DNA of 22,686 nucleotides from Actinomycetota bacterium. GTDB taxonomy: Bacteria; Actinomycetota; Acidimicrobiia; IMCC26256; PALSA-610. Shown in pieces: positions 673 to 22,686 of the stretch. The position numbers were made by a program, and so were the translations under genes. Within the stretch, counting starts at the first letter, position 1. The number at the start of each line of letters is the position of its first letter. The stretch lies in assembly GCA_034408875.1 (NCBI GenBank), contig JAWXCJ010000340.1, forward strand, positions 1 through 22,686, in the 5' to 3' direction. The notes beneath the pieces were generated by a model. The model was not told where the DNA came from. It did not search any database and saw only the letters and a program-made list of their open reading frames with translations.

Positions 673-897
673 ATGCGCTATCTGTGTCGTGTCTCGGACC
701 GTGAAGTGCATGCGTACGCGAACAATCGCCGCGACTTCTTCCTCAAGGCTGACGACACACTGTGGGCCCATGAGTCGCATTCTTGGCTCTTGTCTTCCCC
801 GTCGGGAGCGAAGCTCGCGCATCGTATCGGCGCCACGTACTACGACGCCGAGACGAACGCGCCGCTGTTCTTCGAAACGGCCGAGCTGCCTTCGTGA
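673..897 (+). CDS. Possible small hypothetical protein (74 aa) in a lower-GC island between adk and the HTH gene.
   Basis: ATG at 673 to TGA at 897 translates to MRYLCRVSDREVHAYANNRRDFFLKADDTLWAHESHSWLL...APLFFETAELPS. The composition is protein-like (Y, F, N, K, H, W), not the Arg/Ala/Pro-rich pattern of spurious high-GC ORFs, and GC3 is moderately high. I see no recognisable family and no clear RBS. Confidence 0.2.
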   Translation: MRYLCRVSDREVHAYANNRRDFFLKADDTLWAHESHSWLLSSPSGAKLAHRIGATYYDAETNAPLFFETAELPS

Positions 898-936
898 CGT
901 GATCTGACCGGTGAGGCAGAGCGCCTCGCCGACGCT

Positions 937-1227
937 TCAGGCGAACGCGGCGCGCAGTCGTTCGATCTTCGCCAACCGCTTGGCGGCGTCCTCGGGAGCG
1001 AGATCGTTGTCGGCGCGGACGGCCTTCTCCATCGCGTCGAAGCGGACGCCTTCGCGCTTGCGAATGTCCTTTTGCTCGGCTTTGGGACGGCGCTTCAGCG
1101 CCCGGCGGTAGGCCGATACGGCGGCGCGGGCGCTGTCGCACTTGAGGTCCGCGGCGATTTTCACGAACGACGTTCCCTCGCGACGCAGAGCGAGCACTTG
1201 ATCTTCGTGCTCGGTTGCTTTCGTCAC
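937..1227 (-). CDS. Small (96 aa) DNA-binding protein with a sigma-70 region-4 / LuxR-like helix-turn-helix and a Lys/Arg-rich coiled C-terminal tail.
   Basis: The ORF MTKATEHEDQVLALRREGTSFVKIAADLKCDSARAAVSAYRRALKRRPKAEQKD... contains the segment VLALRREGTSFVKIAADL-x6-VSAYRRALKR. This matches the region-4 HTH pattern of ECF sigma factors (vL.Lr..eG.S..eIA..Lg....tVks...RA...L). Codon usage is good and the gene is divergent from the STAS operon. Confidence 0.5.
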   Translation of the reverse strand: MTKATEHEDQVLALRREGTSFVKIAADLKCDSARAAVSAYRRALKRRPKAEQKDIRKREGVRFDAMEKAVRADNDLAPEDAAKRLAKIERLRAAFA

Positions 1228-1445
1228 TGATGCTCCTCGCGCTCGTGTGGCCTACGAGAGTACCGGCAAACCCGCAGGCTGCGGATCTGGAGGTGCTGGT
1301 CGGGGGGTATGCTGACATCAACCTGCTTGGGTCATGACTCGCAGGGAAGCCCAATTTGGGGAAGTGACGCGCAGACCGAGCCGAAGGTAGCGATGCTGCC
1401 CGGCCTACTCGCCTCTTTCCAGGTGAAGGAGAGAGAGGGAGGCCC

Positions 1446-1799
1446 GTGCCGGTACCTGTATTCACCCCGCGTAACACGATCGACCTCGCCGACGTCGCAG
1501 CGTTGCGCACGGAGCTCACTGCGATCATCGATCGCCACGGTGGCGTCGTGATCGACTGCGCGGACCTCGATCATGTATGCGGCGCGGGTATGCGGGTGCT
1601 GGAAGTCGCGTCTCGTCACGGCTCCGTTTCTCTCGCGAATGCGTCACCGGTCATGCGTTTGCTCGCTGCTGTCTTCGGACTGCACGAGCCCGAATTCCGC
1701 GTCGCACGGTTGCCGCGCGTCGAACACAGCTTCGATGCCGCGGCCCGATCGTTGCGCGCGCACCACCCACTCGTCGTCTGCGCGTCGGACGACAACTGA
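1446..1799 (+). CDS. STAS-domain anti-sigma-factor antagonist (SpoIIAA/RsbV-like), GTG start.
   Basis: 117 aa, TIDLADVAALRTELTAIIDRHGGVVIDCADLDHVCGAGMRVLEVASRHGSVSLANASPVMRLLAAVFGL. This has the STAS fold pattern (charged N-terminal helix, VVIDCADL..V.GAG..VL core, C-terminal amphipathic helix). A purine-rich RBS GAAGGAGAGAGAGGGAGG ends 3 nt before the GTG. Confidence 0.75.
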   Translation: MPVPVFTPRNTIDLADVAALRTELTAIIDRHGGVVIDCADLDHVCGAGMRVLEVASRHGSVSLANASPVMRLLAAVFGLHEPEFRVARLPRVEHSFDAAARSLRAHHPLVVCASDDN

Positions 1800-1821
1800 T
1801 GATGGCCTTGGAGGTCTCACC

Positions 1822-2079
1822 ATGAACACCACCACCGAATCTGGTGAGCTCAAACGTCGCATCGAGCGTCTGTCCGCTGAACGCGTGACGCTGTTCGCCC
1901 AGCCGAACGCTTCGGCCGCCGACAAGGCCCGGCTCAAGACACTCGAGCGCGAGTTGGACGAGTGCTATCTCGAACAACGTCGGCTGCGGGCGGTCAAGGA
2001 CGCGCGGCGGTTCGTTTCCGAGTACTCCATCGTTCGGGTCCCGCGTCCTGACACGTCGTCGACCGCGCCCAGGGACTAG
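1822..2079 (+). CDS. Small coiled-coil protein (86 aa). From memory it resembles the actinobacterial DUF2630 family.
   Basis: A strong RBS GGAGG lies 7 nt before ATG 1822. The protein MNTTTESGELKRRIERLSAERVTLF...LKTLERELDECYLEQRRLRAVKDARRFVS has the I-x-x-L-x-x-E and ELDxC(W/Y)-x-LxQRRA pattern that I recall for DUF2630. It sits 22 bp after the STAS gene and 67 bp before the RsbA-like gene, suggesting one operon. Confidence 0.55.
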   Translation: MNTTTESGELKRRIERLSAERVTLFAQPNASAADKARLKTLERELDECYLEQRRLRAVKDARRFVSEYSIVRVPRPDTSSTAPRD

Positions 2080-2146
2080 CTCCCGGACATTTTCGCCTTC
2101 ACGGTTGAAGCCCCGGGCGTAGGGTAAGAACGCCCGGGAGGCCCGC

Positions 2147-3103
2147 GTGGGCACAACTGAACAGCAACTCGACTGGCATGGCGATGCCTTCCGCCACGAG
2201 GCGCTCTTCTACGCGGGCGATCGCGATTACGTACGCCACACCGTGCCGTTCATCGACGCCGGCGTCGCGAACGGCGAACCGGTCCTCGTCCTCGTACCCG
2301 CGTCCAAACTTGCGTTGCTGCGTGAGCACGTTCCCACCCCGGCGCCCGGTGTCGTATTCGGCGACGTGGAGCGCATCGGCCGCAACCCCAACTGCATCAT
2401 CGCGGTGTTCGACCGGTTCGTCGCCGAGCACGCGCGTGACGGTCAACGGGCGCGTGGGATCGGCGAGCCGATCTGGGCGAGCCGAACGCCGGCCGAACTC
2501 GTCGAATGCCAACGGCACGAAGAGCTGATCAACCTCGCGTTCGCCGGCGCGAACGAAGTCTGGATTCTTTGCCCGTTCGACACCGACGCGCTCGACGAAT
2601 CCGTCATCGCCGAAGCGCACCGAAGTCATCCCTGGGTCACCGGCGAGCAGATGGCGCAGCGCAGCGCCGAGTACGTCGACCCCATCAGTGCGTACGACGC
2701 GCCCCTCGCCGAACCTGCGGTGCCGACCGACACGTTTGCATTCGACCGCGCATCGCTCGGGCATCTCCGACAGGTCGTTACCGCCCGGGCGGTCGCACAC
2801 GTCGACGCGGCCGGGGTCGACGAGATCGTGCTTGCCGTCAGCGAGTTCGCGACGAACAGCATTCGTCACGGAGGCGGACGAGGTTCGGTCCGGATATGGA
2901 CCGAAGGTACGGCGTTCGTGTGTGAGATACACGACGACGGGCGCATCACCGATCCGATGATCGGGCGGCGACGCCCGGCCGCAGAGGGAATCGGCGGCCG
3001 CGGCGTATGGCTCGTCAATCACCTGTGTGATCTGGTGCAGATCCGTTCGGCTGATTCCGGAACCGTCGTACGTTTGACCTTCGGAACCGTCGAGCCGACG
3101 TGA
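2147..3103 (+). CDS. MEDS-domain + HATPase_c anti-sigma regulatory factor (RsbA/RsbW-like Ser kinase), GTG start.
   Basis: N-terminus HEALFYAGDRDYVRHTVPFIDAGVANGEPVLVLVPASKLALLREHV matches the MEDS sensory domain signature. C-terminus LAVSEFATNSIRHGGGRGSVRIW...EIHDDGRITDP...GGRGVWLVNHLCDLVQIR is a GHKL/HATPase_c anti-sigma kinase core (N-box, G-boxes). RBS GGGAGG lies 5 nt upstream. Confidence 0.8.
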   Translation: MGTTEQQLDWHGDAFRHEALFYAGDRDYVRHTVPFIDAGVANGEPVLVLVPASKLALLREHVPTPAPGVVFGDVERIGRNPNCIIAVFDRFVAEHARDGQRARGIGEPIWASRTPAELVECQRHEELINLAFAGANEVWILCPFDTDALDESVIAEAHRSHPWVTGEQMAQRSAEYVDPISAYDAPLAEPAVPTDTFAFDRASLGHLRQVVTARAVAHVDAAGVDEIVLAVSEFATNSIRHGGGRGSVRIWTEGTAFVCEIHDDGRITDPMIGRRRPAAEGIGGRGVWLVNHLCDLVQIRSADSGTVVRLTFGTVEPT

Positions 3104-3291
3104 ACCGGCCGCCGTCACCTGCGATCGGAACACGTCGAAGGGCCTGGGAGGATCAGGCACGGGAGCCGGCGAACGCGGTGAGTGTCAGCGTCAGTCGTTC
3201 GGGTCCGCGGACCGCGACCGGGGCAACATACAAGCCAACGGTCTCGTAGAGGCAGGCTGACACGCGCGGCGCGAACGCGCGAGGCTGCGCC

Positions 3292-4449
3292 GTGGCTTGG
3301 ACTCGCAACCGCCCGATCGGACTTACCTATCGCGACGAGTCGGCCGCTCTCTCCGGCTACGTGCTCTTCGCCTCGGCGCGCGGGCATCACGCCCTGCTCC
3401 TCGACGACGAGGGTCAAGTTGTGCACGCGTGGTACCACCCCGAAGGCGTGATCCACGTCTCCTTGCTGGAGAACGGGCATCTGCTCGCCCACACGCTGCC
3501 GCCGGAGCACGCAGACGGCGCCGAACGGATCGGCGGCTCCGCGGGCGCGCTCGTCGAACTCGACTGGGACAGCAACGTCGTGTGGGAGTACCGCGATCCG
3601 TTCATGCACCACGACTGCCGGCGCCTCGCGAACGGCAACACGCTCGTCGTCGCCTGGGACAAGCTGCCCGACGACTTGCGGCCGAACCTCGTCGGCGGTC
3701 ACGCGCACGCGGACGATCCCGAGTGGACCTGGGCCGATGTCATCAAGGAGATCGATCCCGACGGTGCGGTCTTGCGCGAATGGAAATCGTGGGAGCACCT
3801 GTCGTTCGAGGAGCACCGCATCTGCCCGTTGGAGAGTCACAAGGAGTGGACGCACTGCAACTCGATCGACCTCACCGCGACAGGTGACTGGCTGTTGAGT
3901 TTCCGGCTCACGAGCACGATCGCGATCGTCGATTCCGACAGTGGCGCGGTGAAGTGGAGCTGGGGGCCCGAGCAGTTGTCGCACCAACATCACGCCACCG
4001 AGCTCGACAACGGGAACATCCTGCTGTTCGACAACGGGTGCCATCGGCCCCGCATGCCTTCGTTCTCACGAATCGTCGAACTCGATCCGGAGTCGCACGA
4101 GATCGTGTGGAGCTACCACGCCGACACGATTGTCGCGTTCTTCAGCTTCATGGTCAGCGGATGCGAACGACTGCCCAACGGAAACACCTTCGTCACCGAA
4201 GGTGCGAGCGGTCGGCTCTTCGAGGTCACGCCGGGGCACGACATCGTCTGGGAGTTCGTGAGTCCGTGGATCTTGCCCAGCTTCTTCGGTCCGACTCCTG
4301 TCGTGTTCCGGGCCCACAAGTTCGCCCGCGACGACTCCCGGCTCGCGGGCCACGAACTCGATCCGAAGCGTTACGAGACGTTGAACCGCCGCATCGCCGC
4401 CGGCGTCGTGCTCCGCGAGGCCGACGACGTCGCGGCACTTGCGGGCTGA
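3292..4449 (+). CDS. Arylsulfotransferase (ASST)-family beta-propeller protein. It has no signal peptide. GTG start.
   Basis: 385 aa with repeated propeller-blade motifs RRLANGNTLVVAWD, LDNGNILLFDNG and ERLPNGNTFVTEG, plus W/H-rich blades characteristic of the ASST family. An in-frame stop at 3247 leaves GTG 3292 as the first start, with GAGG 7 nt upstream. Confidence 0.7.
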   Translation: MAWTRNRPIGLTYRDESAALSGYVLFASARGHHALLLDDEGQVVHAWYHPEGVIHVSLLENGHLLAHTLPPEHADGAERIGGSAGALVELDWDSNVVWEYRDPFMHHDCRRLANGNTLVVAWDKLPDDLRPNLVGGHAHADDPEWTWADVIKEIDPDGAVLREWKSWEHLSFEEHRICPLESHKEWTHCNSIDLTATGDWLLSFRLTSTIAIVDSDSGAVKWSWGPEQLSHQHHATELDNGNILLFDNGCHRPRMPSFSRIVELDPESHEIVWSYHADTIVAFFSFMVSGCERLPNGNTFVTEGASGRLFEVTPGHDIVWEFVSPWILPSFFGPTPVVFRAHKFARDDSRLAGHELDPKRYETLNRRIAAGVVLREADDVAALAG

Positions 4450-4536: not shown

Positions 4537-5802
4537 ATGGAGGCCGCGCTCGAAGTCCCGAGAACTGCCCGCGCGGCCCGGACGGGCGTGCAGACCGGTG
4601 CACTTGCCCTGGCCGGCCTCGCCTCGCTCGGAGCCGGCGCGATCCACGCGGCCGCGATGGGTGTGCACAACGAGCACGACCAGGCCGTGCTCGCGTTCGG
4701 GATCGTCGCCGCGTTCCAACTCGGTTGGGGCGCCGCCGCGCTGACGTCGAGCAAGCGGTGGGTGGGTGTGGTCGGCGCGGTCGGGAACGCGGCCATCTTC
4801 GCCGGCTGGGTGCTCGCCAAGACGTCTGGTATCTCGTTCGTCGACGGACTCGAGGCGAGCGAGTTGGTGCAGTGGGCCGACGGCGTCGCGGTCGCGTTGG
4901 CCCTGCTGTCCGTCCTGGGTGTGATTGCAGTCGCGGTGCGCGGGCGCCGGCTGCTCAGCTCGCCGACCGCGTTCCCAATCGCGACGGTCGCGATCGCCGC
5001 GATAACCGTGAGCGCGATGGTCTCGGCCGCGAACGGCCACGCGCACGCGGCGGGCGGCGACGGTCACGGGAACGAAGCGACCGCCGCGGCTGCCGGCGAC
5101 GGCCACGGCGACGACCACGGTGACGCGCCGGCGACCGACGCGACCGTCGACCACGGCGACGACCACGGCGACGACCACGTCGACGACCACGTCGAAGCAG
5201 TAGCGAAGCCCTACGACCCCGCCGAGCCGATCGACCTGAGCGGCACCGACGGTGTCACACCCGCCCAGCAGGCCGCGGCCGAGAACCTCATCGCGTCGAC
5301 GTTGCTCGACTTGCCGCGCTGGGCCGATCCCGCGACCGCCGAAGCCGAAGGCTGGCAATCGATTCGCGACGGCGCAACCGGTTACGAGCATTACATCAAC
5401 CGATCGCTGATCGGAGACGGTCGTATCCTCGACCCCGACTATCCCGAGTCGCTGGTGTACACGGTCAACCGATCAACCGGGCAGAAGGAACTGGCGGCGG
5501 CCATGTTCATGCTCGAGCCGGGCGCGACACTCGACAACGCACCCAACGTCGGCGGCAACCTCATGCAGTGGCATATCCACAACAACCTGTGCTTCACGGC
5601 CCCACCGGATTCGCGCATCGCGGGTCTTACCAACCCCGACGGCACCTGCAACGCCCCGCTCGTCACGGGAATCCAACTGCCGATGGTGCACGTCTGGATC
5701 AAGTCCCACCCGTGCGGGCCATTCTCCGCGCTCGAAGGAGTCGGTGGCGGGCAAATCAAAGAGGGCGAAGAACGCCTGTGCGACGCCGCTCATGGCGCGT
5801 GA
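4537..5802 (+). CDS. Polytopic membrane protein P1 with a His/Asp-rich linker and a conserved Cys/His C-terminal extracytoplasmic domain. Uncharacterised family; paralogue of the gene at 14095-15276.
   Basis: AGGAGG lies 7 nt before the ATG. The N-terminal ~150 aa contain 4-5 hydrophobic helices with embedded His (IHAAAMGVHNEHD). Next comes GHAHAAGGDGHGNEATAAAAGDGHGDDHGDAPATDATVDHGDDHGDDHVDDHVE. The C-terminal ~170 aa carry motifs AEAEGW, GYEHY, LVY, LEPGA, WHIHNNLCF, MVHVWIKSHPCGPFSA that are shared with P2. Confidence 0.8.
   Translation: MEAALEVPRTARAARTGVQTGALALAGLASLGAGAIHAAAMGVHNEHDQAVLAFGIVAAFQLGWGAAALTSSKRWVGVVGAVGNAAIFAGWVLAKTSGISFVDGLEASELVQWADGVAVALALLSVLGVIAVAVRGRRLLSSPTAFPIATVAIAAITVSAMVSAANGHAHAAGGDGHGNEATAAAAGDGHGDDHGDAPATDATVDHGDDHGDDHVDDHVEAVAKPYDPAEPIDLSGTDGVTPAQQAAAENLIASTLLDLPRWADPATAEAEGWQSIRDGATGYEHYINRSLIGDGRILDPDYPESLVYTVNRSTGQKELAAAMFMLEPGATLDNAPNVGGNLMQWHIHNNLCFTAPPDSRIAGLTNPDGTCNAPLVTGIQLPMVHVWIKSHPCGPFSALEGVGGGQIKEGEERLCDAAHGA
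5035..5196 (+). repeat. In-frame His/Asp-rich low-complexity tract inside P1, including a 12-bp tandem repeat (gaccacggcgac / gaccacgtcgac, about 3.75 copies at 5149-5193).
   Basis: There are 13 His in 54 residues. The DNA shows direct tandem 12-mers encoding (D)DHG / DDHV. Confidence 0.7.
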
Positions 5803-11965: not shown

Positions 11966-12277
11966 CTACTCCGAGGTCGAGGGCTCCTCGGGCGGTGCGG
12001 GCTCCGGCGCCGGATCAGCCGGTGGTGCCGGTTCGACCGGCGGAGGGGGAACGTAGCTGTCGAGCGCCGGGGTTGTCGTTTCCTGAGGTCGGTTCGCCTT
12101 CTTGCGCAGGGCGAGCGGCACCGCGATCCCGATGAGCAACCCGACGAGGGGGAGGATGAGCAGCAGGATGCTGTCGAGGGCGATGACGCCGAATATCAAC
12201 AGGTCGACACCGATCAGGAGGCCGAGGAAGAAGCCCGAGATGGCACCGAGGACGGGACGGCCGCGTTTGCGCATCAT
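11966..12277 (-). CDS. Small membrane protein (about 103 aa) with two TM helices and a Pro-rich C-terminal tail.
   Basis: MMRKRGRPVLGAISGFFLGLLIGVDLLIFGVIALDSILLLILPLVGLLIGIAVPLALRKK...PPPPVEPAPPADPAPEPAPPEEPSTSE. Its start ATG overlaps the TGA of the upstream gene (ATGATG/TGA), indicating translational coupling. The Arg-rich N-terminal extension in the ORF track is an artefact. Confidence 0.5.
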   Translation of the reverse strand: MMRKRGRPVLGAISGFFLGLLIGVDLLIFGVIALDSILLLILPLVGLLIGIAVPLALRKKANRPQETTTPALDSYVPPPPVEPAPPADPAPEPAPPEEPSTSE

Positions 12278-12813
12278 CCGCCTGCCCGAATCGCGACGAC
12301 GAGACCGACTGCGCTGAGTGCGGTGAGGACGAGCGCGGGAATGGCGGCCGGGCTGCCGATCCCGCTCTCGCCGATCGTGACGGTGATCGAGCCCTCGCAG
12401 CGGATGCCCTCTTCTTCGTGGTATCCGCTCACCGGGATGGGAATGCCTTCGAGGATGCTCGGCACGTCGTATTCGTACGTACCGTTCTTGGCGTACTCGT
12501 CGCTCGTGTCGCCCCAACTGCCGACGGTCACGGATCCGATCCCGCCGGGCAGGTCGACGACGACCTCGCCGCCGACCGCGCGTTCGGTGGGTGCGCTCGG
12601 CGAGTCGACCGCGCCCTGCCAAGCAACGTCGCCACTGGCGGGCAGACCCTCGGCCTCGTCCATGACCTTCGGGTCGTAGGTCTCACCGTCGACGACGCCG
12701 GACGCCGAGCACGGGTCGTCGAGCTTGGCGTCGGCCGGTGGAGCGCTCAGCAACATCACCGCCCCGGCGAACCCCGCGACGGCCAGAAGTCGCCATCCCA
12801 CGCGTCGGCGCAT
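12274..12813 (-). CDS. Secreted, C-terminally anchored protein (signal peptide + about 120-aa ectodomain + C-terminal TM).
   Basis: MRRRVGWRLLAVAGFAGAVMLLSAPPADA is a Sec-type signal peptide with an ADA-K cleavage site. The mature domain has two Cys. The C-terminal AAIPALVLTALSAVGLVVAI segment is a TM anchor. GAGGG lies upstream of the ATG. Confidence 0.55.
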   Translation of the reverse strand: MRRRVGWRLLAVAGFAGAVMLLSAPPADAKLDDPCSASGVVDGETYDPKVMDEAEGLPASGDVAWQGAVDSPSAPTERAVGGEVVVDLPGGIGSVTVGSWGDTSDEYAKNGTYEYDVPSILEGIPIPVSGYHEEEGIRCEGSITVTIGESGIGSPAAIPALVLTALSAVGLVVAIRAGG

Positions 12814-12892: not shown

Positions 12893-14008
12893 ATGCCGAC
12901 CTTGAACGATGCTGCCCTGACCGACCTGCTCGCCCGGGCCCAGCGCGAAATCGACGAGGGGCACGTCCCTTCGTGTCAGATGGCGCTCGCCCTCGACGGG
13001 GAGGTGATCTTCGAGGCGACGCTCGGTGACGCGGCCCCGGATTCGCGCTACACGATCTTCTCGGCGACGAAGCCGGTCGTCGCCGGGGCGATGTGGATCC
13101 TGATCGGCGAGGGCGCGATCGACGTCGACCGCACCGTCGCCTCGTACATCCCCGAGTTCGCGGCGAACGGCAAGGACGCGATCACCGTCGAGCAGGTGAT
13201 GCTGCACACGTCGGGGTTCCCCCGCGCGCCGTTCGCCGCGCTCGACTGGGACGACCGGGAACGGCGCCTCGCCCGCTTCGACCGGTGGCGGACGAACTGG
13301 GAACCGGGGACGCGCTTCGAGTACCACCCGACGTCGGCCCACTGGGTGCTCGCCGAACTCATCGAACGGGCCTCGGGCATGGACTTCCGCGAGTTCATCA
13401 AGACGCGCATTCTCGACCCGCTCGGACTCACGAAACTGCGCGTCGGTGTTCCCGCCGCGGAGCAGGACGACATCAACGACCTGGTCAGCACCGGCGAGCA
13501 CGCGTCGGCCGAGGAGTTGATGGCGGCCATCGGTATCGCCGAACTGCCGCTCACCGAGGTGACACCCCAGGCGCTGATCGACATGAACGCGCCCGCCGTG
13601 CGCGCCGTCGGTGTGCCCGGCGGTGGTGGAGTGTCGACCGCCGGCGACCTCACCCGCTACTACCAGGCCCTGCTCCACGACCGGGCCGGGCTGTGGAAGC
13701 CGGAGGTCCTGGCCGACGCCAAGACGGCGGTGCGCAACACCTTCCCCGACTACATGGGGACGCCGGCCAACCGCACCCGGGGGCTGGTCGTCGCCGGATC
13801 TGACAATAAGTCCCATATGCGGGGGATGGGTCACACCGTTTCCGCCGGCGCGTTCGGGCACAACGGCGCCGCCGGTCAGATCGCGTGGGCCGACCCCGAA
13901 ACCGGCGTCTCGTTCGCGTATCTCACCGACGGCAACGACCTCCACGAGCTGCGCCAATGGCGGCGTACCTCCGCGTTGGCGAGTCGCGCGGGGAATTGTG
14001 TGACCTGA
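12893..14008 (+). CDS. Serine hydrolase of the beta-lactamase / class-C esterase family. No signal peptide.
   Basis: It contains the S-x-x-K active-site motif (FSATKPV), Y-x-x motifs and the C-terminal H-x-G (GHNGAAGQIAW) typical of PBP-fold class-C beta-lactamase/EstB esterases. The ORF-track N-terminal extension (from 12725) is Arg/Pro-rich and overlaps the divergent upstream gene, so I use ATG 12893 (MPTLNDAALTDLL). Confidence 0.7.
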   Translation: MPTLNDAALTDLLARAQREIDEGHVPSCQMALALDGEVIFEATLGDAAPDSRYTIFSATKPVVAGAMWILIGEGAIDVDRTVASYIPEFAANGKDAITVEQVMLHTSGFPRAPFAALDWDDRERRLARFDRWRTNWEPGTRFEYHPTSAHWVLAELIERASGMDFREFIKTRILDPLGLTKLRVGVPAAEQDDINDLVSTGEHASAEELMAAIGIAELPLTEVTPQALIDMNAPAVRAVGVPGGGGVSTAGDLTRYYQALLHDRAGLWKPEVLADAKTAVRNTFPDYMGTPANRTRGLVVAGSDNKSHMRGMGHTVSAGAFGHNGAAGQIAWADPETGVSFAYLTDGNDLHELRQWRRTSALASRAGNCVT

Positions 14009-14011
14009 CAG

Positions 14012-14039
14012 TTGCGCAGGGGTGCGCGACTCGTAAGAT
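14012..14039 (+). promoter_or_regulatory. Candidate promoter for P2: TTGCGC - 16 nt - TAAGAT. It is immediately followed by the TTGCAC-N5-GTGCAC inverted repeat.
   Basis: The -35/-10-like pair lies in the 86-bp gap before P2. The palindromic TTGCACtgctcGTGCAC (14039-14055) overlaps the predicted TSS region. Confidence 0.25.
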
Positions 14040-14094
14040 TGCACTGCTCGTGCACACCACCTTCGTGCGCGGTGTTTCCAATGGGGGGAACCGA

Positions 14095-15276
14095 GTGGAC
14101 GTTCGCAAGGTCGGAATCTGGATGGTCGCCGTCGGCGGCGCCGCACTCTCGGTCGGAATCGTGCTCGACGCGATCCAGCAGGCCGACGACCCGACGCTCG
14201 CGTCGAAGGAAGGGATCTTCGACCTTTCCCGCTTCGCGCACGCGTTGTTTTTCGGCGGCATGGCTGTCGCTGTGCTCGGGTTGTTTGCGTTGCTCGTCGG
14301 TGCGCACCTCTACGGCGGCGAGGGACGCGTCACGGTCGGACGCCGCATCATGCAGGTCGGTGCGCCGATCGCGGCAGTCATCGTGCTCGGGGCGACGGCC
14401 GCAGCCGCGAGCAACACCGCGTTGGGTGAACCGAACGGCGACGCGGCCGCGACCGAAGAAGTTGCCACAGCGGAGGCCGATGCCGCCGCGACCGACGAGA
14501 TGGCGGAGCACGCCCACGGTGACGAAGCCACCGCGGCCGACGCGACTGGTGAAACCAGCGAGCACGCGCACGGTCCCGTCATCGAAGGCACCGCGACCGG
14601 CGACTCGCCGTGCGAGGTCGCGTCACCGACTCCCGCGTCACCCGGTCAGGTCGGTACCGGTGAAGGTGGATCCGAAGAAGTGATCGGCGAGCACGGCGGC
14701 CGCGGCATGGTGAAGCAGACGCCGCTCACCGCCGACGAAATGCAGGCGCTTCAGGAGCAGATGGTCCAGGCCCGCACCGTCATCGAAAAGTACCCGACCG
14801 TCGCCGACGCCGAAGCGGGCGGCTACCACAAGTCGACCGTGTACGTGCCGTGCATCGGTGCGCACTACACGAATATCGCGCTCGTGCCCGGGTTCGACCC
14901 GACCGCGCCTTCGGAGTTGCTCTACGACGGTTCGACGCCCGACGCCAAGATCGTCGGCCTCAGCTACCTCGTCCTCGAACCGAGCGGGGAACCGCCCGAA
15001 GGTTTCGCCGGCAAGAACGACCACTGGCACCAGCACAACGCCAACGGCGGGCTCTGCTTCGGAGCCGGCCAGGTCGTCATCGGCGGCGAGGAGATGACCG
15101 AGGAAGAGTGCACCGAGATCGGCGGCACCAAGCGCGAGCTCACGAACATCTGGATGATGCACGCGTGGGTCGTCCCCGGCTTCGAATGCAGCTGGGGCGT
15201 CTTCGCCGGTGAGTGTCCCGAACTCGGTGGCCGCGCCGGCGGCACCGCCTGGGACGAACCCGCCCCCGCCAGCTAA
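14095..15276 (+). CDS. Membrane protein P2, a paralogue of P1: TM N-terminus, acidic/His-containing linker with two EHAHG motifs, conserved Cys/His C-terminal domain. Start uncertain (GTG 14095 or ATG 14119).
   Basis: The C-terminal domain aligns with P1: ADAEAGGY/AEAEGW, GAHYTN/GYEHYIN, SELLYD/ESLVYT, LVLEPSG/FMLEPGA, DHWHQHNANGGLCF/MQWHIHNNLCF, MMHAWVVPGFECSWGVFAGE/MVHVWIKSHPCGPFSALEG. The ORF-track start at 13885 overlaps the hydrolase and is rejected. Confidence 0.7.
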   Translation: MDVRKVGIWMVAVGGAALSVGIVLDAIQQADDPTLASKEGIFDLSRFAHALFFGGMAVAVLGLFALLVGAHLYGGEGRVTVGRRIMQVGAPIAAVIVLGATAAAASNTALGEPNGDAAATEEVATAEADAAATDEMAEHAHGDEATAADATGETSEHAHGPVIEGTATGDSPCEVASPTPASPGQVGTGEGGSEEVIGEHGGRGMVKQTPLTADEMQALQEQMVQARTVIEKYPTVADAEAGGYHKSTVYVPCIGAHYTNIALVPGFDPTAPSELLYDGSTPDAKIVGLSYLVLEPSGEPPEGFAGKNDHWHQHNANGGLCFGAGQVVIGGEEMTEEECTEIGGTKRELTNIWMMHAWVVPGFECSWGVFAGECPELGGRAGGTAWDEPAPAS

Positions 15277-15977
15277 CCCAACGGCGACCAGTTCGCGCTG
15301 CGCAACAACCGGCTCTGCCAGTCGTCGCGGACTTCGAGCGCGTCGTGCATCCACGTGCCGGGTTCCTTCACGCGCGCGGGGAGTTCGTGGGTGAACAGCG
15401 CGGGCAGCCGCTCGGGGTAGTCGACGCGTTGCCACAGCACGACTTCGCGCCGCCGGGGTGAACCGATCGCGGTCTGGAACACGCCGAGCAGTGTGAGCAG
15501 CGAACGCGTGGTCTGCTGTTCGAGGCTCGGCGCGTAGTGGGTGCGTGCCTTCTCGAGGTACGTGTCGAGCATGCCTTCGTAGGGCCACGCGCTGTCCTGC
15601 ATGTAGAGGACGGGGTCGTGTTCGCGCCCGTCGGTCGGCACCGCCGCCAGGTCGATCTCCCGGAGTGGCGACCACTCGACGGCGAGGAGCACCTTCCCGC
15701 GCACCTCGTGGCGCATGCGGTCGGTGTCGGCGGCCCACGACCGCAGGTCGCCGCGCTGCACCCGTTCGGCCAGGCGCTCGTACGCGTTCCCGTCGCGCAG
15801 GGCGGTGATCGTGACTACGTGGTACGCCCGGCCGGTGCCGTGGGCGATCCGCAGGAAGTAGAGGAGCCGCGCCCCGTCGTCTTCGGCGACCTCGGGCATG
15901 AAGCCCTCGCGGAACGTCCGCTCGAAGGCTTCCTCGTGGCGTCCGGCCACGGTGTGGAGCTCGTGCAGGAACAACAT
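15273..15977 (-). CDS. Tandem NIPSNAP/Dabb-like (ferredoxin-like alpha+beta barrel) protein.
   Basis: Two repeats, MLFLHELHTVAGRHEEAFERTFREGFMPEVAEDDGARLLYFLRIAHGTGRAYHVVTITALRDGNAYERLAERV and PVLYMQDSAWPYEGMLDTYLEKARTHYAPSLEQ..., follow the NIPSNAP pattern (hydrophobic strand, G..E.F, late aromatic, h.a.s..a.e.). ATG at 15977 was chosen because the upstream ORF-track extension is low-complexity. Confidence 0.45.
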   Translation of the reverse strand: MLFLHELHTVAGRHEEAFERTFREGFMPEVAEDDGARLLYFLRIAHGTGRAYHVVTITALRDGNAYERLAERVQRGDLRSWAADTDRMRHEVRGKVLLAVEWSPLREIDLAAVPTDGREHDPVLYMQDSAWPYEGMLDTYLEKARTHYAPSLEQQTTRSLLTLLGVFQTAIGSPRRREVVLWQRVDYPERLPALFTHELPARVKEPGTWMHDALEVRDDWQSRLLRSANWSPLG

Positions 15978-16071
15978 GGTGGGGCAGCCTCGCGCAATTC
16001 GGACACCGGCTCGACTCCGTGCCCCGACAACGGGGTTCACCGGGTCGCCCGAGACGCCGATCACTTCCGGG

Positions 16072-18642
16072 ATGGGCGATTCGCGGCGTCGGGAGTTGGT
16101 CGGGATGCACCCGGACCCCGTCGCGCTCGTCGCCCTCTCGCCGTCGCTCACCGCGGTCCTCGACGCCGACGGGGTGCCCCGCTACCTGAGCCCGAGCGCG
16201 GCGGCCCTGTTCGACACGGTGCACCCCGACGACACGACGGTGCTGGAGACCGCGTTCGCCGAAGCCGTCCTGCACCCGGGCCGGGCGGTGCCGGTGCACT
16301 TCCGTGCGCATGCCGGCGGCCGGATGCGGCACCTTGCCGGGCAGTTTCTCAACCGCGTCGAAGACCCGCGTGTCGGTGGGGTCGTGTTGCACCTCACCGA
16401 CGTCAGCTCGGAGTCGACGCTCGCGGTCATCGCACGCGACTTCATGGACCGCGGCCGGCACGACCTCGATGCGTGCGTTGTCGACGCGCTCGCCGCACTG
16501 GCCGACCTCGCCGATGCCGATCGTGCCGCGGTGTTCCACGTCCGCGAGAACGGGTTGGCCGCCGAACTCACCCACGAGTGGTGCCGTGACCCGAGCACGA
16601 GCCGCGCGGGCGACTATCAGAACGTGCCGCTCGACTTGGTGCCGCGCCTCGTCGACCTCCTGCTCGACCTCCGCACGACCGTGATCAACATCGCGGAGCG
16701 GCCCGAGTTCGCGGCGGACGCGGCTGCGATCGGCGCGGCGGACACCCGGTCGTGCGCGCTCGCGCCGCTGATCGTCGATGGTCGTCTGGTCGGATGCGTC
16801 GCGCTCGAGTTCATCGGCCGCGAACGCGCGTGGCAGTCGGCCACGCTGTCGCTCCTCGACCAGTTCGCGCCGGTGTTGTCGTCCGCACTGGAGCGGCGCC
16901 GCATCGAGCGCGAGTTCCGCGACGCGCAAACACGATTCGAACAGGCGTGGAAACACGCGCCCATCGGCATGGTCATGCTGTCCCGCGAGGGTGAGTTGCT
17001 ACGGGTAAACCCGGCGTTCTGCGAACTGCTCGGCTACCGCGAGTGGGAGCTGATCGGCGCGCCGTTTCCCGAGCTGCTGCACCCCACCGACCTCCGTGAG
17101 TACGAGGCCAACGTCGCGCGGCTCGACGCGGGCGAGGACGATCGGCTGCAACTGGAACTCCGGTTCGGTCGCCGCGTGCCGGGCGAGTCGGGGGAAGACG
17201 GGACGTGGTGCCGGGTCAGCTTGTCGCTCGTGCGCGACGACGACCGCGAGCGCACCTATCTCATCGGGCAGATCGAAGACGTCACGCAACGCCGCGAGTT
17301 CGAAGCACGTCTCGAGTACGAGGCGACGCACGACGCGCTCACCGGGCTGCCACAGCGCAACACACTCCTCGAAAGTCTCGAACGAGCGCTGGCCGGCGCG
17401 ACGCGCCGAGGCGACAACGTCGCGGTGTTGTTCATCGACGTCGACAACTTCAAGCGTGTGAACGACACGCTCGGGCACGCCGCGGGCGACGAGTTGCTCC
17501 AGTCGTTCGCCGGGAGGCTGTCGCGCGCAGTGCGCGCGTCGGACATGGCGGCCCGGCTCGGCGGGGACGAGTTCGTCGTCATGTGCACCGACCTTGCCGA
17601 CCCCCGCCAGGTCGTGCGGGTCGCCCAACGGATCCTGCACCTCGTCGAGCAACCGTTCCGCGTACGCGGCGTCGAGGTGTTCGTCGGCGCGAGTATTGGC
17701 ATCGCCGTCGCCGAGTCCGGTGTCGACGCGGCGACGCTGCTGCGCCACGCGGACACCGCGGCGTACCGGGCCAAGGACCGGGGCCGGAACCGGTACGAGA
17801 TCTTCGACGACGAACTCCGCGCCGCGGTCGCGCGCCGGCTCGAGACCGAAACCGCGCTGCGCCGGGCGATCGAAGACGACGAACATCGTCTGCATTTCCA
17901 GCCGATCATCGACGTGTCGTCGGGCCGGGTGGCGGCGTTCGAGGTGCTCGGCCGTTGGGACGACGACCGGCACGGTTCCGAGCGCTCTCACGATTTCCAG
18001 ACGATCGCCGAGGAAACCGGCCTCGTTGTCGCGATCGGCAAGCGGCTCATCCACGACGCGTGCGAACAGCTCGCCCGGTGGCAACGCACCTTCCGTGACG
18101 ACGCGCCGGGCATCTCGATCAACATCTCGGCCCGGCAGCTTGCGCATCCGTCGCTGCTCGACGACACCCGCGCCGCGTTGCGCAAGACGGGAGCCCGGGC
18201 GGCCGACCTGACGTTCGAGATTTCCGAGAGCGTGCTCATGGACGACACGCAGACGAGCATCGCCCGGCTCGAAGAGCTGCGCGCGCTCGGAGTGCGCATT
18301 GCCATCGACGACTTCGGCGCCGGCTATTCGTCGCTCAGCTATCTCCGCCGGTTACCGGTCGACGCCATCAAGATCAATCACGCGTTTGTCGTCGAGCTCG
18401 GTATCGACCACGACGGCTCGACGATCGTCGCGGCGGTGATCAACCTCGCGCGCGCGCTGGGTTTGGACATCGCCGCCGACGGTGTCGAAAGCATCGAACA
18501 CGTCGCGGCTCTGGTCACGCTCGGCTGCGACCGCATGCAGGGTGGATACTTCTCGGTTCCGCTGAACGAGGCGGATGCCACCGAGATGTTGCGCTGCCCG
18601 GTGCGTCAGGACTTGCCGGGGCCGACCACGTCGAGCACGTAG
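16072..18642 (+). CDS. Multidomain c-di-GMP signalling protein: PAS - GAF - PAS - GGDEF - EAL. Start uncertain (ATG 16072 or 16105).
   Basis: The GGDEF domain has an intact RLGGDEFVV signature with upstream DALTGLPQRN and FIDVDNFKRVND. The EAL domain has LHFQPIID, E-V-L, DDFGAGYSSLSYLRRLPVDAIKI and QGGYFSVP. N-terminal PAS-like and GAF-like segments are present (e.g. IGMVMLSREGELLRVNPAFCELLGY). The ORF-track start at 15898 overlaps the divergent NIPSNAP gene and is rejected. Confidence 0.8.
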   Translation: MGDSRRRELVGMHPDPVALVALSPSLTAVLDADGVPRYLSPSAAALFDTVHPDDTTVLETAFAEAVLHPGRAVPVHFRAHAGGRMRHLAGQFLNRVEDPRVGGVVLHLTDVSSESTLAVIARDFMDRGRHDLDACVVDALAALADLADADRAAVFHVRENGLAAELTHEWCRDPSTSRAGDYQNVPLDLVPRLVDLLLDLRTTVINIAERPEFAADAAAIGAADTRSCALAPLIVDGRLVGCVALEFIGRERAWQSATLSLLDQFAPVLSSALERRRIEREFRDAQTRFEQAWKHAPIGMVMLSREGELLRVNPAFCELLGYREWELIGAPFPELLHPTDLREYEANVARLDAGEDDRLQLELRFGRRVPGESGEDGTWCRVSLSLVRDDDRERTYLIGQIEDVTQRREFEARLEYEATHDALTGLPQRNTLLESLERALAGATRRGDNVAVLFIDVDNFKRVNDTLGHAAGDELLQSFAGRLSRAVRASDMAARLGGDEFVVMCTDLADPRQVVRVAQRILHLVEQPFRVRGVEVFVGASIGIAVAESGVDAATLLRHADTAAYRAKDRGRNRYEIFDDELRAAVARRLETETALRRAIEDDEHRLHFQPIIDVSSGRVAAFEVLGRWDDDRHGSERSHDFQTIAEETGLVVAIGKRLIHDACEQLARWQRTFRDDAPGISINISARQLAHPSLLDDTRAALRKTGARAADLTFEISESVLMDDTQTSIARLEELRALGVRIAIDDFGAGYSSLSYLRRLPVDAIKINHAFVVELGIDHDGSTIVAAVINLARALGLDIAADGVESIEHVAALVTLGCDRMQGGYFSVPLNEADATEMLRCPVRQDLPGPTTSST

Positions 18643-21288: not shown

Positions 21289-22179
21289 GTGCGCAGTCGA
21301 TACGTGATCACCAACGGGATCCGTCTTCACGTCCTGGAAGCCGGGCCGCCCGCCGGTCCTTTGGTGCTGCTGCTGCACGGCTTTCCCGAACTCGCGCACT
21401 CGTGGCGCCATCAGGTAGAGGCGCTCGGCGCCGCGGGCTACCACACCGTTGCGCCCGACCTGCCCGGCTACGGGCGCTCCGACAAACCCGATGTCGCCTA
21501 CGACTGCGAGTTCATCAACGGCACCCTGGTGGGCCTGGTCGACGCGCTCGGTCACGACCAGTTCGTGGTCGCCGGTCACGACTGGGGCGGCATCCTCGCG
21601 TGGACGATGGCGCGTCAGTTTCCCGACCGCGTCGCGGGGGTTATCGGTGTGAACACCCCCGACCTGCCGCGCGGGCCGATCCCACCCGTGCAGATGTTGC
21701 GGATGATCTTTCCGGACACGCCGATCTACATCATCGGTTTCCAGGATCGCTACGTCGCCGAATGGGTGTTGTCATGGGGGCGGGGCGCCGACGACTTCAT
21801 CGACATGATGTTCCGCAACGCGACAGTGAAGAACGCGGATGCGTTCCCCGACGACGTGCTCGAGGTCTACAAGGAAGCGTTCCGGCCCGCGGGCGCGCTC
21901 ACACCACCGATCGAGTACTACCGAAACCTCGACCGCAACTGGGAGCTCACCGCGTCGATCGCGGAGAACAAGATCGAGGTCCCGTGCCTGATGATCTGCG
22001 CGGCCGACGACCCCGTCCTCCCGCCGGCGCTGAGTGAAGGCATGGAAGAACGCGTCCCCAACCTCGAGCGCGTCATCATCGAGAACTGCGGCCACTGGAC
22101 CCAACAAGAACGCCCCGAAGAAACCAGCGCCGCCATCCTCACGTACCTCACCCGCGAACACCCAAGGATGCGTCGATAG
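21289..22179 (+). CDS. Alpha/beta-hydrolase fold protein, epoxide-hydrolase-like. GTG 21289 is preferred; the alternative ATG 21250 would overlap the divergent WS/DGAT start.
   Basis: The N-terminal signature NGIRLHVLEAGPPAGPLVLLLHGFPELAHSWRHQVEALGAAGYHTVAPDLPGYGRSDKP and the nucleophile elbow VAGHDWGG (Asp nucleophile, as in epoxide hydrolases/haloalkane dehalogenases) match. The C-terminal IIENCGHWTQQERPEE carries the catalytic His. Confidence 0.7.
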   Translation: MRSRYVITNGIRLHVLEAGPPAGPLVLLLHGFPELAHSWRHQVEALGAAGYHTVAPDLPGYGRSDKPDVAYDCEFINGTLVGLVDALGHDQFVVAGHDWGGILAWTMARQFPDRVAGVIGVNTPDLPRGPIPPVQMLRMIFPDTPIYIIGFQDRYVAEWVLSWGRGADDFIDMMFRNATVKNADAFPDDVLEVYKEAFRPAGALTPPIEYYRNLDRNWELTASIAENKIEVPCLMICAADDPVLPPALSEGMEERVPNLERVIIENCGHWTQQERPEETSAAILTYLTREHPRMRR

Positions 22180-22210
22180 CCCACACGTGGTGTGGGCTAT
22201 CGACGCATCC
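22166..22210. terminator. 45-bp perfect palindrome (21-nt arms, 3-nt centre) overlapping the hydrolase stop codon; candidate factor-independent terminator.
   Basis: GGATGCGTCGATAGCCCACAC-gtg-GTGTGGGCTATCGACGCATCC. The arms are exact reverse complements with no following U-tract, as is common for actinobacterial terminators. Both ORF-track ORFs covering it translate to mirrored peptides. Confidence 0.45.
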
Positions 22211-22518
22211 CGTTGGTTGGGTGCGGCGGGCGGCCATGGCGCCCCGCGCCCATTCTCCCGGAAGAGATCGCACCGTTCGACTTCGGCCCGCGCGAAGTCG
22301 TCGGCATGTGGAGCACTCAGGACCTGCGGCTCGCGTCGGGCAACTGGATGGAAGCTGGGTCAGAAGCCCGCTGCGGTTCACGAAAGCCACCGGTATCAAC
22401 GCCGAGGTGACGGTCCACTTGCATCGCAGCGCGGTGGCCGATCGGGCGTGCCGCCCAGTCGTTGCTCGTCGAGTCGACCGCGGTGCGGCAACCGCCCGGA
22501 TCGCGACTCGAGAGCTCC

Positions 22519-22686
22519 TAGAAGTCGTCGGGCTCGCGCTCGACGTCGGCGGCCGACAGCTCGAACTCGCCGTTGCGGAACACGAGGCTCGCGGGCCGGC
22601 CCGCGAGGGGCGGGCGCAGGTCGCCCCGGTTCATGTCGACCCGCACCGCAATGGTGCGCCGGCCCGCGGCCGTGAGCATCGTGACC
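22519..22686 (-). CDS. 3' end (last 55 codons) of a hypothetical gene that continues beyond the window end.
   Basis: The reverse frame ends ...RTIAVRVDMNRGDLRPPLAGRPASLVFRNGEFELSAADVEREPDDF* with a stop at 22519-22521. GC3 is near 100%, against about 75% for the complementary frame. No family is recognised. Confidence 0.5.

Follow-up and report, generated by a model that had tools for sequence, protein, structure and literature searches.

A putative orphan RsbA-type kinase operon, and a small helix-turn-helix gene that recurs beside DUF2630 genes, in an Actinomycetota contig

What does an anti-sigma kinase act upon when no sigma factor is encoded beside it? This question is raised by a three-gene operon (positions 1446-3103) on contig JAWXCJ010000340.1 of an Actinomycetota bacterium (assembly GCA_034408875.1), from which a stretch of 22,686 nucleotides, hereafter the window, was analysed. 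The operon encodes a STAS-domain protein, a DUF2630-like protein, and an RsbA-family kinase with an N-terminal MEDS domain; encoded divergently upstream is a 96-amino-acid (aa) helix-turn-helix (HTH) protein, which we term the mini-protein. An earlier reading of the sequence alone had taken the missing sigma gene to be remarkable, and had proposed that the kinase targets the mini-protein, viewed as a sigma factor reduced to its region 4, with control of a distant sigma factor as the alternative. With moderate confidence, we favour a reading closer to that alternative, i.e., that an orphan kinase unit would act on a distant sigma factor alongside a STAS partner devoid of the phosphorylatable serine, with the mini-protein probably regulating the unit that contains the DUF2630-like gene.

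The four genes, their spacing, their ribosome-binding sites, and their domain calls are as first described, as analysis of open reading frames (ORFs) and of Pfam and NCBIfam matches confirmed. The mini-protein gene (937-1227, minus strand), which belongs to an uncharacterised family without a Pfam model, is separated by a 218-bp intergenic region (1228-1445), the presumed site of the promoters for both transcription units, from the STAS gene (1446-1799, plus strand). The latter encodes a 117-aa protein of anti-sigma-antagonist fold with a C-terminal extension of ~35 aa, and is followed on the same strand, after a 22-bp gap, by the DUF2630-like gene (1822-2079; an 85-aa basic coiled-coil protein) and, after a further 67 bp, by the gene for the 318-aa anti-sigma factor/serine kinase (2147-3103). 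Each of the four genes has a ribosome-binding site (GGAGG, GGGAGG or GAGGAG) 5-7 nt ahead of its start codon.

The kinase is an ordinary member of the large and already named family of actinobacterial RsbA anti-sigma kinases. It scores 340.9 bits against NCBIfam model NF041045 ("anti-sigma factor RsbA family regulatory protein"; cutoff 210), with residues 15-312 aligning full-length to model positions 1-302 of 303, and it contains the Pfam domains MEDS (aa 16-162, nt 2192-2632; 109 bits) and HATPase_c_2 (aa 200-312, nt 2744-3082; 69.3 bits). Of the candidates scored, 4,315 are relatives at E<=1e-10, and the nearest ones outside its own clade are ~45-53% identical. Across an alignment of 24 kinase homologues, N-box residues E233 and N237 and G1 residues D263 and G265 are invariant; HATPase proteins are reported to require the N-box Glu/Asn and the G1 Asp/Gly to bind Mg-ATP (PMC9137472). 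An AlphaFold2 model of the kinase reached a predicted local distance difference test (pLDDT) score of 87.9, and its C-terminal domain superposes on SpoIIAB (1l0o, 1th8; template-modelling [TM] score 0.74-0.79), on RsbW (6m36, 6m37; TM 0.82-0.89), and on the anti-sigma (UsfX) chains of the SigF complexes 8jzt and 8ih8, TM scores to these three proteins being 0.7-0.9 overall. The N-terminal MEDS domain resembles RecA/KaiC-like α/β domains in the fold comparison, and at the sequence level RsbW is the sole solved structure matched. Four cysteines (C121, C142, C259 and C294, in the motifs ECQRHE, LCPYD, CE and LCDLV) are invariant or nearly so in the 24 homologues, which suggests a possible redox or metal-sensing role. 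A full-text literature search found no paper combining "MEDS domain" with "anti-sigma".

The lack of a sigma gene near the operon was confirmed at two levels. No Sigma70 Pfam domain was detected in the 22 window ORFs scanned (short ORFs being only partly covered), and a custom sigma profile had no match in the ~7 kb beyond the left end of the window that is provided by a 32-kb metagenome contig of 99.7% identity (L090). To place this in context, 79 independent homologous kinase loci (45-51% identity) from reference genomes and metagenome-assembled genomes (MAGs), spanning Actinomycetota, Acidimicrobiia, Thermoleophilia, Dormibacterota and others, were scanned with profiles for sigma factors, STAS proteins, DUF2630-like proteins, and the mini-protein, with representatives checked against Pfam. 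Where at least 3 kb of sequence was available on both flanks, a sigma gene lay within 3 kb in 5 of 47 loci (~11%), and a STAS gene lay within 1 kb in 20 of the 79 loci (~25%); at three further kinase loci, the kinase gene stands alone or beside unrelated small genes. A cognate sigma gene in or next to the operon, as in the canonical RsbV/RsbW/SigB module, is thus missing here as it is in ~89% of family loci. An absent sigma neighbour is normal for the RsbA family, so the initial surprise at its absence does not hold; RsbA kinases are usually encoded far from their sigma factor. Control of a distant sigma factor is the best-supported reading. With this baseline of ~11% for sigma and ~25% for STAS genes nearby, the lack of a sigma gene next door need not be flagged as unusual in other members. 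As for the kind of sigma factor concerned, four of the five sigma-bearing loci (L026, L051, L054 and L075) display the canonical order STAS-RsbA-STAS-group-3 sigma, and because these homologues are operonic with group-3 sigma genes, the family can be taken to serve SigB-like sigma factors. The rarity of sigma neighbours is in line with the literature, in which Streptomyces coelicolor encodes 45 RsbW and 17 RsbV homologues, along with 44 PP2C phosphatases, versus nine SigB-like sigma factors. The fifth locus (L060) instead has a sigma gene of the extracytoplasmic function (ECF) type directly upstream of the kinase gene, as does L064. These ECF-type sigma-domain ORFs (L060, 6232-7671; L064, 1945-3420) lie ~300 bp upstream of the kinase and measure ~480-490 aa from stop to stop, with the ECF domains within the first ~200 residues; an ECF sigma factor next to an RsbW-like anti-sigma factor is an unusual pairing.

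The second departure from the canonical module concerns the STAS protein. Its match to Pfam STAS (PF01740) is marginal (24.4 bits versus a gathering threshold of 22.6), with 23.2 bits for STAS_2, an E value of 0.0024 for TIGR00377, and 24.8 bits against a custom hidden Markov model (HMM) for which canonical STAS proteins found at other loci were the sole source, the clade of the window being excluded to avoid circularity. In both a MAFFT and an HMM alignment, Gly46 takes the position of SpoIIAA Ser58 and RsbV Ser56: the protein reads "...DLDHVCGAGMRVL" versus the canonical "...DvsFmDStGLgvL", with "HVCGAGM" versus "FmDStGL" at the core. The phosphorylatable serine of the canonical D-S-(S/T)-G motif is thus absent, and because Gly46 replaces it, the canonical phospho-switch cannot work on this protein. 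The orthologue in a second lineage (L005) has Val at the same position. Among the 20 RsbA-adjacent STAS proteins of other loci, 13 have Ile, Val or Leu at the site (L018, L028, L030, L033, L036, L038, L039, L041, L046, L056, L057, L065 and L079), in each case encoded directly upstream of the RsbA homologue; twelve of these read "FCD[I/V/L](S/T)G" and the remaining one, from L057, "FID[V]AG". The D-S-T/S-G motif is kept in the STAS proteins of the four operons that contain a group-3 sigma gene. A STAS partner without the serine is common in the RsbA family, which points to widespread phosphorylation-independent action of such antagonists. The 13 proteins with Ile, Val or Leu form a distinct subgroup and stem mostly from Dormibacterota or related MAGs. 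Three cysteines occur in the window STAS protein as well, at positions 38, 45 (adjoining the lost phospho-site), and 111.

Known partner switches offer partial precedents for this arrangement. In S. coelicolor, the rsbB-rsbA-sigB operon likewise has a STAS gene upstream of a kinase gene of the same architecture (MEDS plus an RsbW-like HATPase), the window kinase being a full-length match to the family that bears the RsbA name. RsbB reportedly has no phosphorylatable serine, and the true RsbA antagonist, RsbV (SCO7325), is said to be encoded elsewhere. SigB of that organism is regulated by only RsbA together with SCO7325 (PMC8346170). The window differs from the S. coelicolor operon in that no sigB-like gene follows the kinase gene, a DUF2630-like gene is inserted, and a small HTH gene lies divergently upstream. 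Relative to the Bacillus RsbV-RsbW-SigB and SpoIIAA-SpoIIAB-SigF systems, the HATPase fold (TM 0.74-0.89), the STAS partner, and the N-box and G1 Asp residues are retained, whereas the kinase carries an N-terminal MEDS sensor, the STAS protein has Gly at the phospho-Ser position, and neither a sigma gene nor a PP2C phosphatase gene occurs in the scanned window ORFs (no Pfam match to SpoIIE/PP2C among them). A PP2C phosphatase is present at some homologous RsbA loci, e.g., L044. The UsfX-SigF system of Mycobacterium tuberculosis, with its antagonists RsfA and RsfB, is actinobacterial as well, and its UsfX structures (8jzt, 8ih8) are among the fold matches of the window kinase; UsfX, however, has no MEDS domain. 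The M. tuberculosis antagonists are encoded apart from the sigma and anti-sigma genes, and RsfA, reportedly not controlled by phosphorylation, is controlled by cysteine redox.

The AlphaFold2 model of the mini-protein is confident (pLDDT 92.9) and comprises a three-helix HTH of the sigma-4/LuxR/DeoR-like kind (helices 1-3, residues 2-45) and a helical hairpin (helices 4-5, residues 49-95), with no counterpart to region 2, the core-binding and -10-recognition part of sigma factors. Compared as whole proteins against the PDB with Foldseek, nothing significant was returned (best E, 1.4). Many sigma region-4 domains were nonetheless among the fold matches (scores: SigG1, 7.1; PhyR sigma-like domain, 6.8; SigF of 8jzt, 6.4; FliA, 6.4; SigR, 6.3; SigC, SigW and SigE, ~6), with LuxR/GerE domains at 5.4-6.5. 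The three-helix fold of sigma-70 region 4 is thus present, and describing the mini-protein as a region-4-like HTH with a tail was fair structurally; the HTH is generic in sequence, and that description does not set the mini-protein apart from ordinary small HTH regulators such as GerE. It has no match to sigma-70 region 4 (PF04545/PF08281) at E<=0.1, all of its matches fall below the Pfam cutoffs (GerE, 13.4 bits versus 23.5), and the weak matches of 60 family members are spread over HTH_38 (22), HTH_18 (20), HTH_68 (11), HTH_7 (10) and Sigma70_r4_2 (4). From the GerE/LuxR and DeoR/SorC domains, which are structural relatives of sigma region 4, it differs by the distinctive C-terminal hairpin. 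Searching PDB sequences with a profile brought up nothing but noise (tetratricopeptide-repeat designs and basic helix-loop-helix proteins). A HMMER search that covered 1.84 billion cluster representatives in full yielded 126 relatives (E<=1e-3), almost all of them ~100 aa long and matching end to end, the named sources being mostly Acidimicrobiales MAGs, with the conserved pattern D..VL.LR..G.SF..IA..LG......A..AF.RALRRRP..EQ..LR..E..RLD.L...VRA. A metagenome scan with the single mini-protein returned only copies of 98-99% identity, and tblastn against plasmids and phages had no matches. Two genes flanking the kinase of locus L003 (100 and 92 aa) were considered as mini-protein homologues and rejected as not homologous; the 100-aa gene also has no match to the custom STAS profile.

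The contexts of mini-family genes, gathered from individual look-ups, represent 8 independent lineages. All four genes occur together in the clade of the window (the window itself, L090, L091, L001/L007 and L006/L010; mini-proteins 96-100% identical). In L005 (54-59%), the order is rearranged to DUF2630 (minus), mini-protein (plus) and STAS (minus), with no kinase gene on the 8.4-kb contig and with flanks that differ from those of the window (penicillin amidase, cold-shock protein). A contig of only 681 bp, L097 (50%), has an 85-aa DUF2630-like gene (Pfam, 21.2 bits) divergently adjacent, and in L096 (58%) the mini-protein gene is followed by an unknown 123-aa gene and a convergent truncated gene with DUF2630 (15 bits) as its only Pfam match. 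The remaining lineages have other neighbours: a KshA-like Rieske oxygenase and a helicase with DEAD-box and cold-shock domain (CSD) on either side in L008/L009 (51%), GAF-ANTAR and ABM genes flanking it in L092 (41%), a cold-shock protein gene in L093 (38%), and SnoaL and 63-aa genes before and Crp after it in L094/L095 (40%). An RsbA kinase gene therefore adjoins the mini-protein gene in 1 of 8 lineages, namely the clade of the window (none of the 7 contexts outside it), a STAS gene in 2 of 8, and a DUF2630(-like) gene in 4 of 8 (the clade of the window, L005, L097 and, weakly, L096), i.e., 4 of the 5 lineages with mini-proteins at least 50% identical. Gene order and orientation vary among those four; in three cases (the window, L005 and L097), the mini-protein gene and the unit that contains the DUF2630 gene are transcribed divergently. 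Conversely, the scan of the 79 RsbA loci turned up no mini-protein homologue. In other genomes, then, the mini-protein tracks with a DUF2630 gene and not with the kinase, an observation that is modestly new. Separately, cold-shock-domain genes lie one or two genes from mini-protein homologues in 3 of the 8 contexts: a CspA-like gene beside the STAS gene in L005 (8227-8427), a CspA-like gene 40 bp upstream of the mini-protein gene in L093 (4758-4961), and the DEAD-box helicase gene with C-terminal CSD directly downstream in L008 (6495-7958). These may hint at a connection to cold or RNA metabolism.

The 85-aa protein encoded between the STAS and kinase genes scores 17.5 bits against Pfam DUF2630 (PF10944), below the 27-bit cutoff, while its L005 orthologue (51% identical) scores 30.6 bits, above it; by transitivity through that orthologue, the 85-aa protein is predicted to be a divergent DUF2630 member. 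At the 79 other RsbA loci, no DUF2630-like gene was found, whether between STAS and kinase genes or at another position, which bears out the suggestion that its insertion is unusual; a DUF2630-like gene inserted in an RsbA-type operon is new. The further suggestion that it is an extra component gains some support from its co-occurrence with the mini-protein. A tblastn search of plasmids with the L005 DUF2630 orthologue gave no matches, and a full-text literature search found no paper mentioning DUF2630, a family without known function. The recurrent linkage of an uncharacterised family of ~100-aa HTH proteins with DUF2630 is new and is the only novel lead from this locus; it provides a first testable handle on both families.

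How, then, would these parts work together? In the reading we favour, operon 1446-3103 would be an orphan RsbA-type partner-switching unit. Its kinase would most probably inhibit, by binding, a sigma factor of the SigB/SigF type (group 3) whose gene lies at another locus of the genome, and the signal input would be set by the MEDS domain. The STAS protein, if it acts at all, would bind the kinase without being phosphorylatable, by analogy with S. coelicolor RsbB or M. tuberculosis RsfA; occupancy would then depend on how much STAS protein is present or on some other cue. The mini-protein would be a stand-alone DNA-binding HTH protein that has evolved in partnership with the DUF2630 coiled-coil gene, in some lineages also with the STAS gene, rather than with the kinase gene. 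Acting at the intergenic region that the two transcription units share, it most probably controls expression of the neighbouring unit with the DUF2630-like gene; where a small HTH gene stays divergent from a partner gene, local control of transcription would be the simplest mechanism. What is observed here is that the kinase belongs to the family, that the domains are intact, that the phospho-serine is lost, and how the gene neighbourhoods are composed; every binding step and the identity of the sigma target are inferred. Several points weigh against this scheme: a sigma target in trans is assumed with ~30 kb of the genome covered; no operator motif is common to the intergenic sequences of the window and of L005, L096 and L097 beyond shuffle expectation; the mini-protein/DUF2630 association amounts to four lineages, including the 681-bp contig and the weak truncated match; L008 encodes a close mini-protein homologue (51% identity) with neither partner nearby; and the closest relatives (L001, L006 and L090) show the same arrangement of all four genes, as plain inherited synteny would also produce. 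In the window, the intergenic region holds a single short palindrome (CCGCAG-G-CTGCGG, 6+6; 1272-1284) found there only, and neither a consensus sigma-70 promoter nor a convincing terminator was found in 850-3300.

Three other explanations have to be set against this scheme. In the first, the mini-protein would be a sigma factor of which only region 4 is left, sequestered by the MEDS-HATPase kinase and released by the STAS protein; this finds a structural parallel in entry 8jzt, described as an RsbW-type anti-sigma factor crystallised with a region-4 fragment. The gene neighbourhoods, a check that the sequence-only reading had itself put forward, speak otherwise: because the mini-protein and the RsbA kinase co-occur only in the clade of the window, the idea is left unsupported, and this central proposal of the sequence-only reading now seems very improbable. 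The three small proteins could instead form a protein-protein switch of their own, with a transcription factor as its output, coupled in this clade to the input of an RsbA kinase; e.g., the DUF2630 protein could bind and silence the HTH protein, with the STAS protein competing for DUF2630. The small genes are clustered in L005 in another order and orientation, with no kinase gene on that contig, DUF2630-like genes adjoin mini-protein homologues in L097 and, weakly, L096, and between the window and L001 (93.6% identical) the mini-protein, STAS and DUF2630-like proteins are 96-98% identical, versus 89% for the kinase and 91% for the arylsulfotransferase. Partner switches with non-sigma outputs are known, e.g., SypA/SypE, RbaV/W, and a STAS module of Anabaena that acts on a glycosyltransferase (PMC8256260; PMC13555669; PMC3999984). 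Such a switch is nonetheless unlikely: the interaction is purely hypothetical, all three genes occur in 2 lineages only, the mini-protein lineages L008, L092, L093 and L094 have neither partner, and divergent pairs of a small HTH gene and its target have a simpler explanation in local control of transcription. Its fullest form, in which HTH, DUF2630 and serine-less STAS proteins make up an undescribed module of Actinomycetota/Acidimicrobiia that sequesters a transcription factor and is wired here to a MEDS kinase, strikes us as quite unlikely; if true, the output of this partner switch would be a DNA-binding protein other than a sigma factor. Finally, the mini-protein gene might be a neighbour kept by descent in a few related Actinomycetota, regulating something else and bearing no functional tie to the operon. 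Half of the mini-protein lineages do have unrelated neighbours, and the lack of a shared operator motif fits as well. DUF2630 genes are rare, yet stand beside mini-protein genes in 3-4 lineages with differing flanks and orientations, a recurrence that is hard to account for unless linkage is selected; we consider retention by descent alone rather unlikely. The favoured reading has a routine core, i.e., one more orphan RsbA-type kinase in a family of thousands.

The window is GC-rich (64-72%), and no Rfam families or tRNAs were detected in it. A MAG labelled Actinomycetota bacterium encodes a protein 100% identical to the 318-aa kinase. To the left of the operon lies an adenylate kinase gene, and to the right an arylsulfotransferase-like gene followed by genes for a membrane protein, an MFS transporter, an SPFH protein, and metabolic functions. 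Between the adenylate kinase and mini-protein genes, and convergent with the latter, is a 75-aa ORF (673-897, plus strand; MRYLCRVSDREVHAYANNRRDFFLKADDTLWAHESHSW...) without a Pfam match; its product is 99% identical in L001 and L006, against 89-98% for the proteins encoded nearby, and it is not called as a gene in their public records. The predicted membrane protein (4537-5802, plus strand; 421 aa) has no Pfam match and contains His/Asp-rich repeats (GDGHGDDHGD...DHGDDHGDDHVDDH) that resemble a metal-binding low-complexity region. A cyclic di-GMP signalling protein of GAF-PAS-GGDEF-EAL architecture is encoded 13 kb from the operon (15898-18642, plus strand), and in L003/L004 a PAS-GGDEF-EAL gene (L003, 5240-7483, minus strand) lies immediately upstream of, and divergent from, the unit formed by the 100-aa gene and the RsbA homologue, a recurrence that may be coincidental. 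Four further sizeable window ORFs have no significant Pfam match, three of which show coding-like GC content at third codon positions (12274-12813, minus strand; 13885-15276, plus strand; 15273-16151, minus strand), the fourth (22034-22675, plus strand) not doing so.

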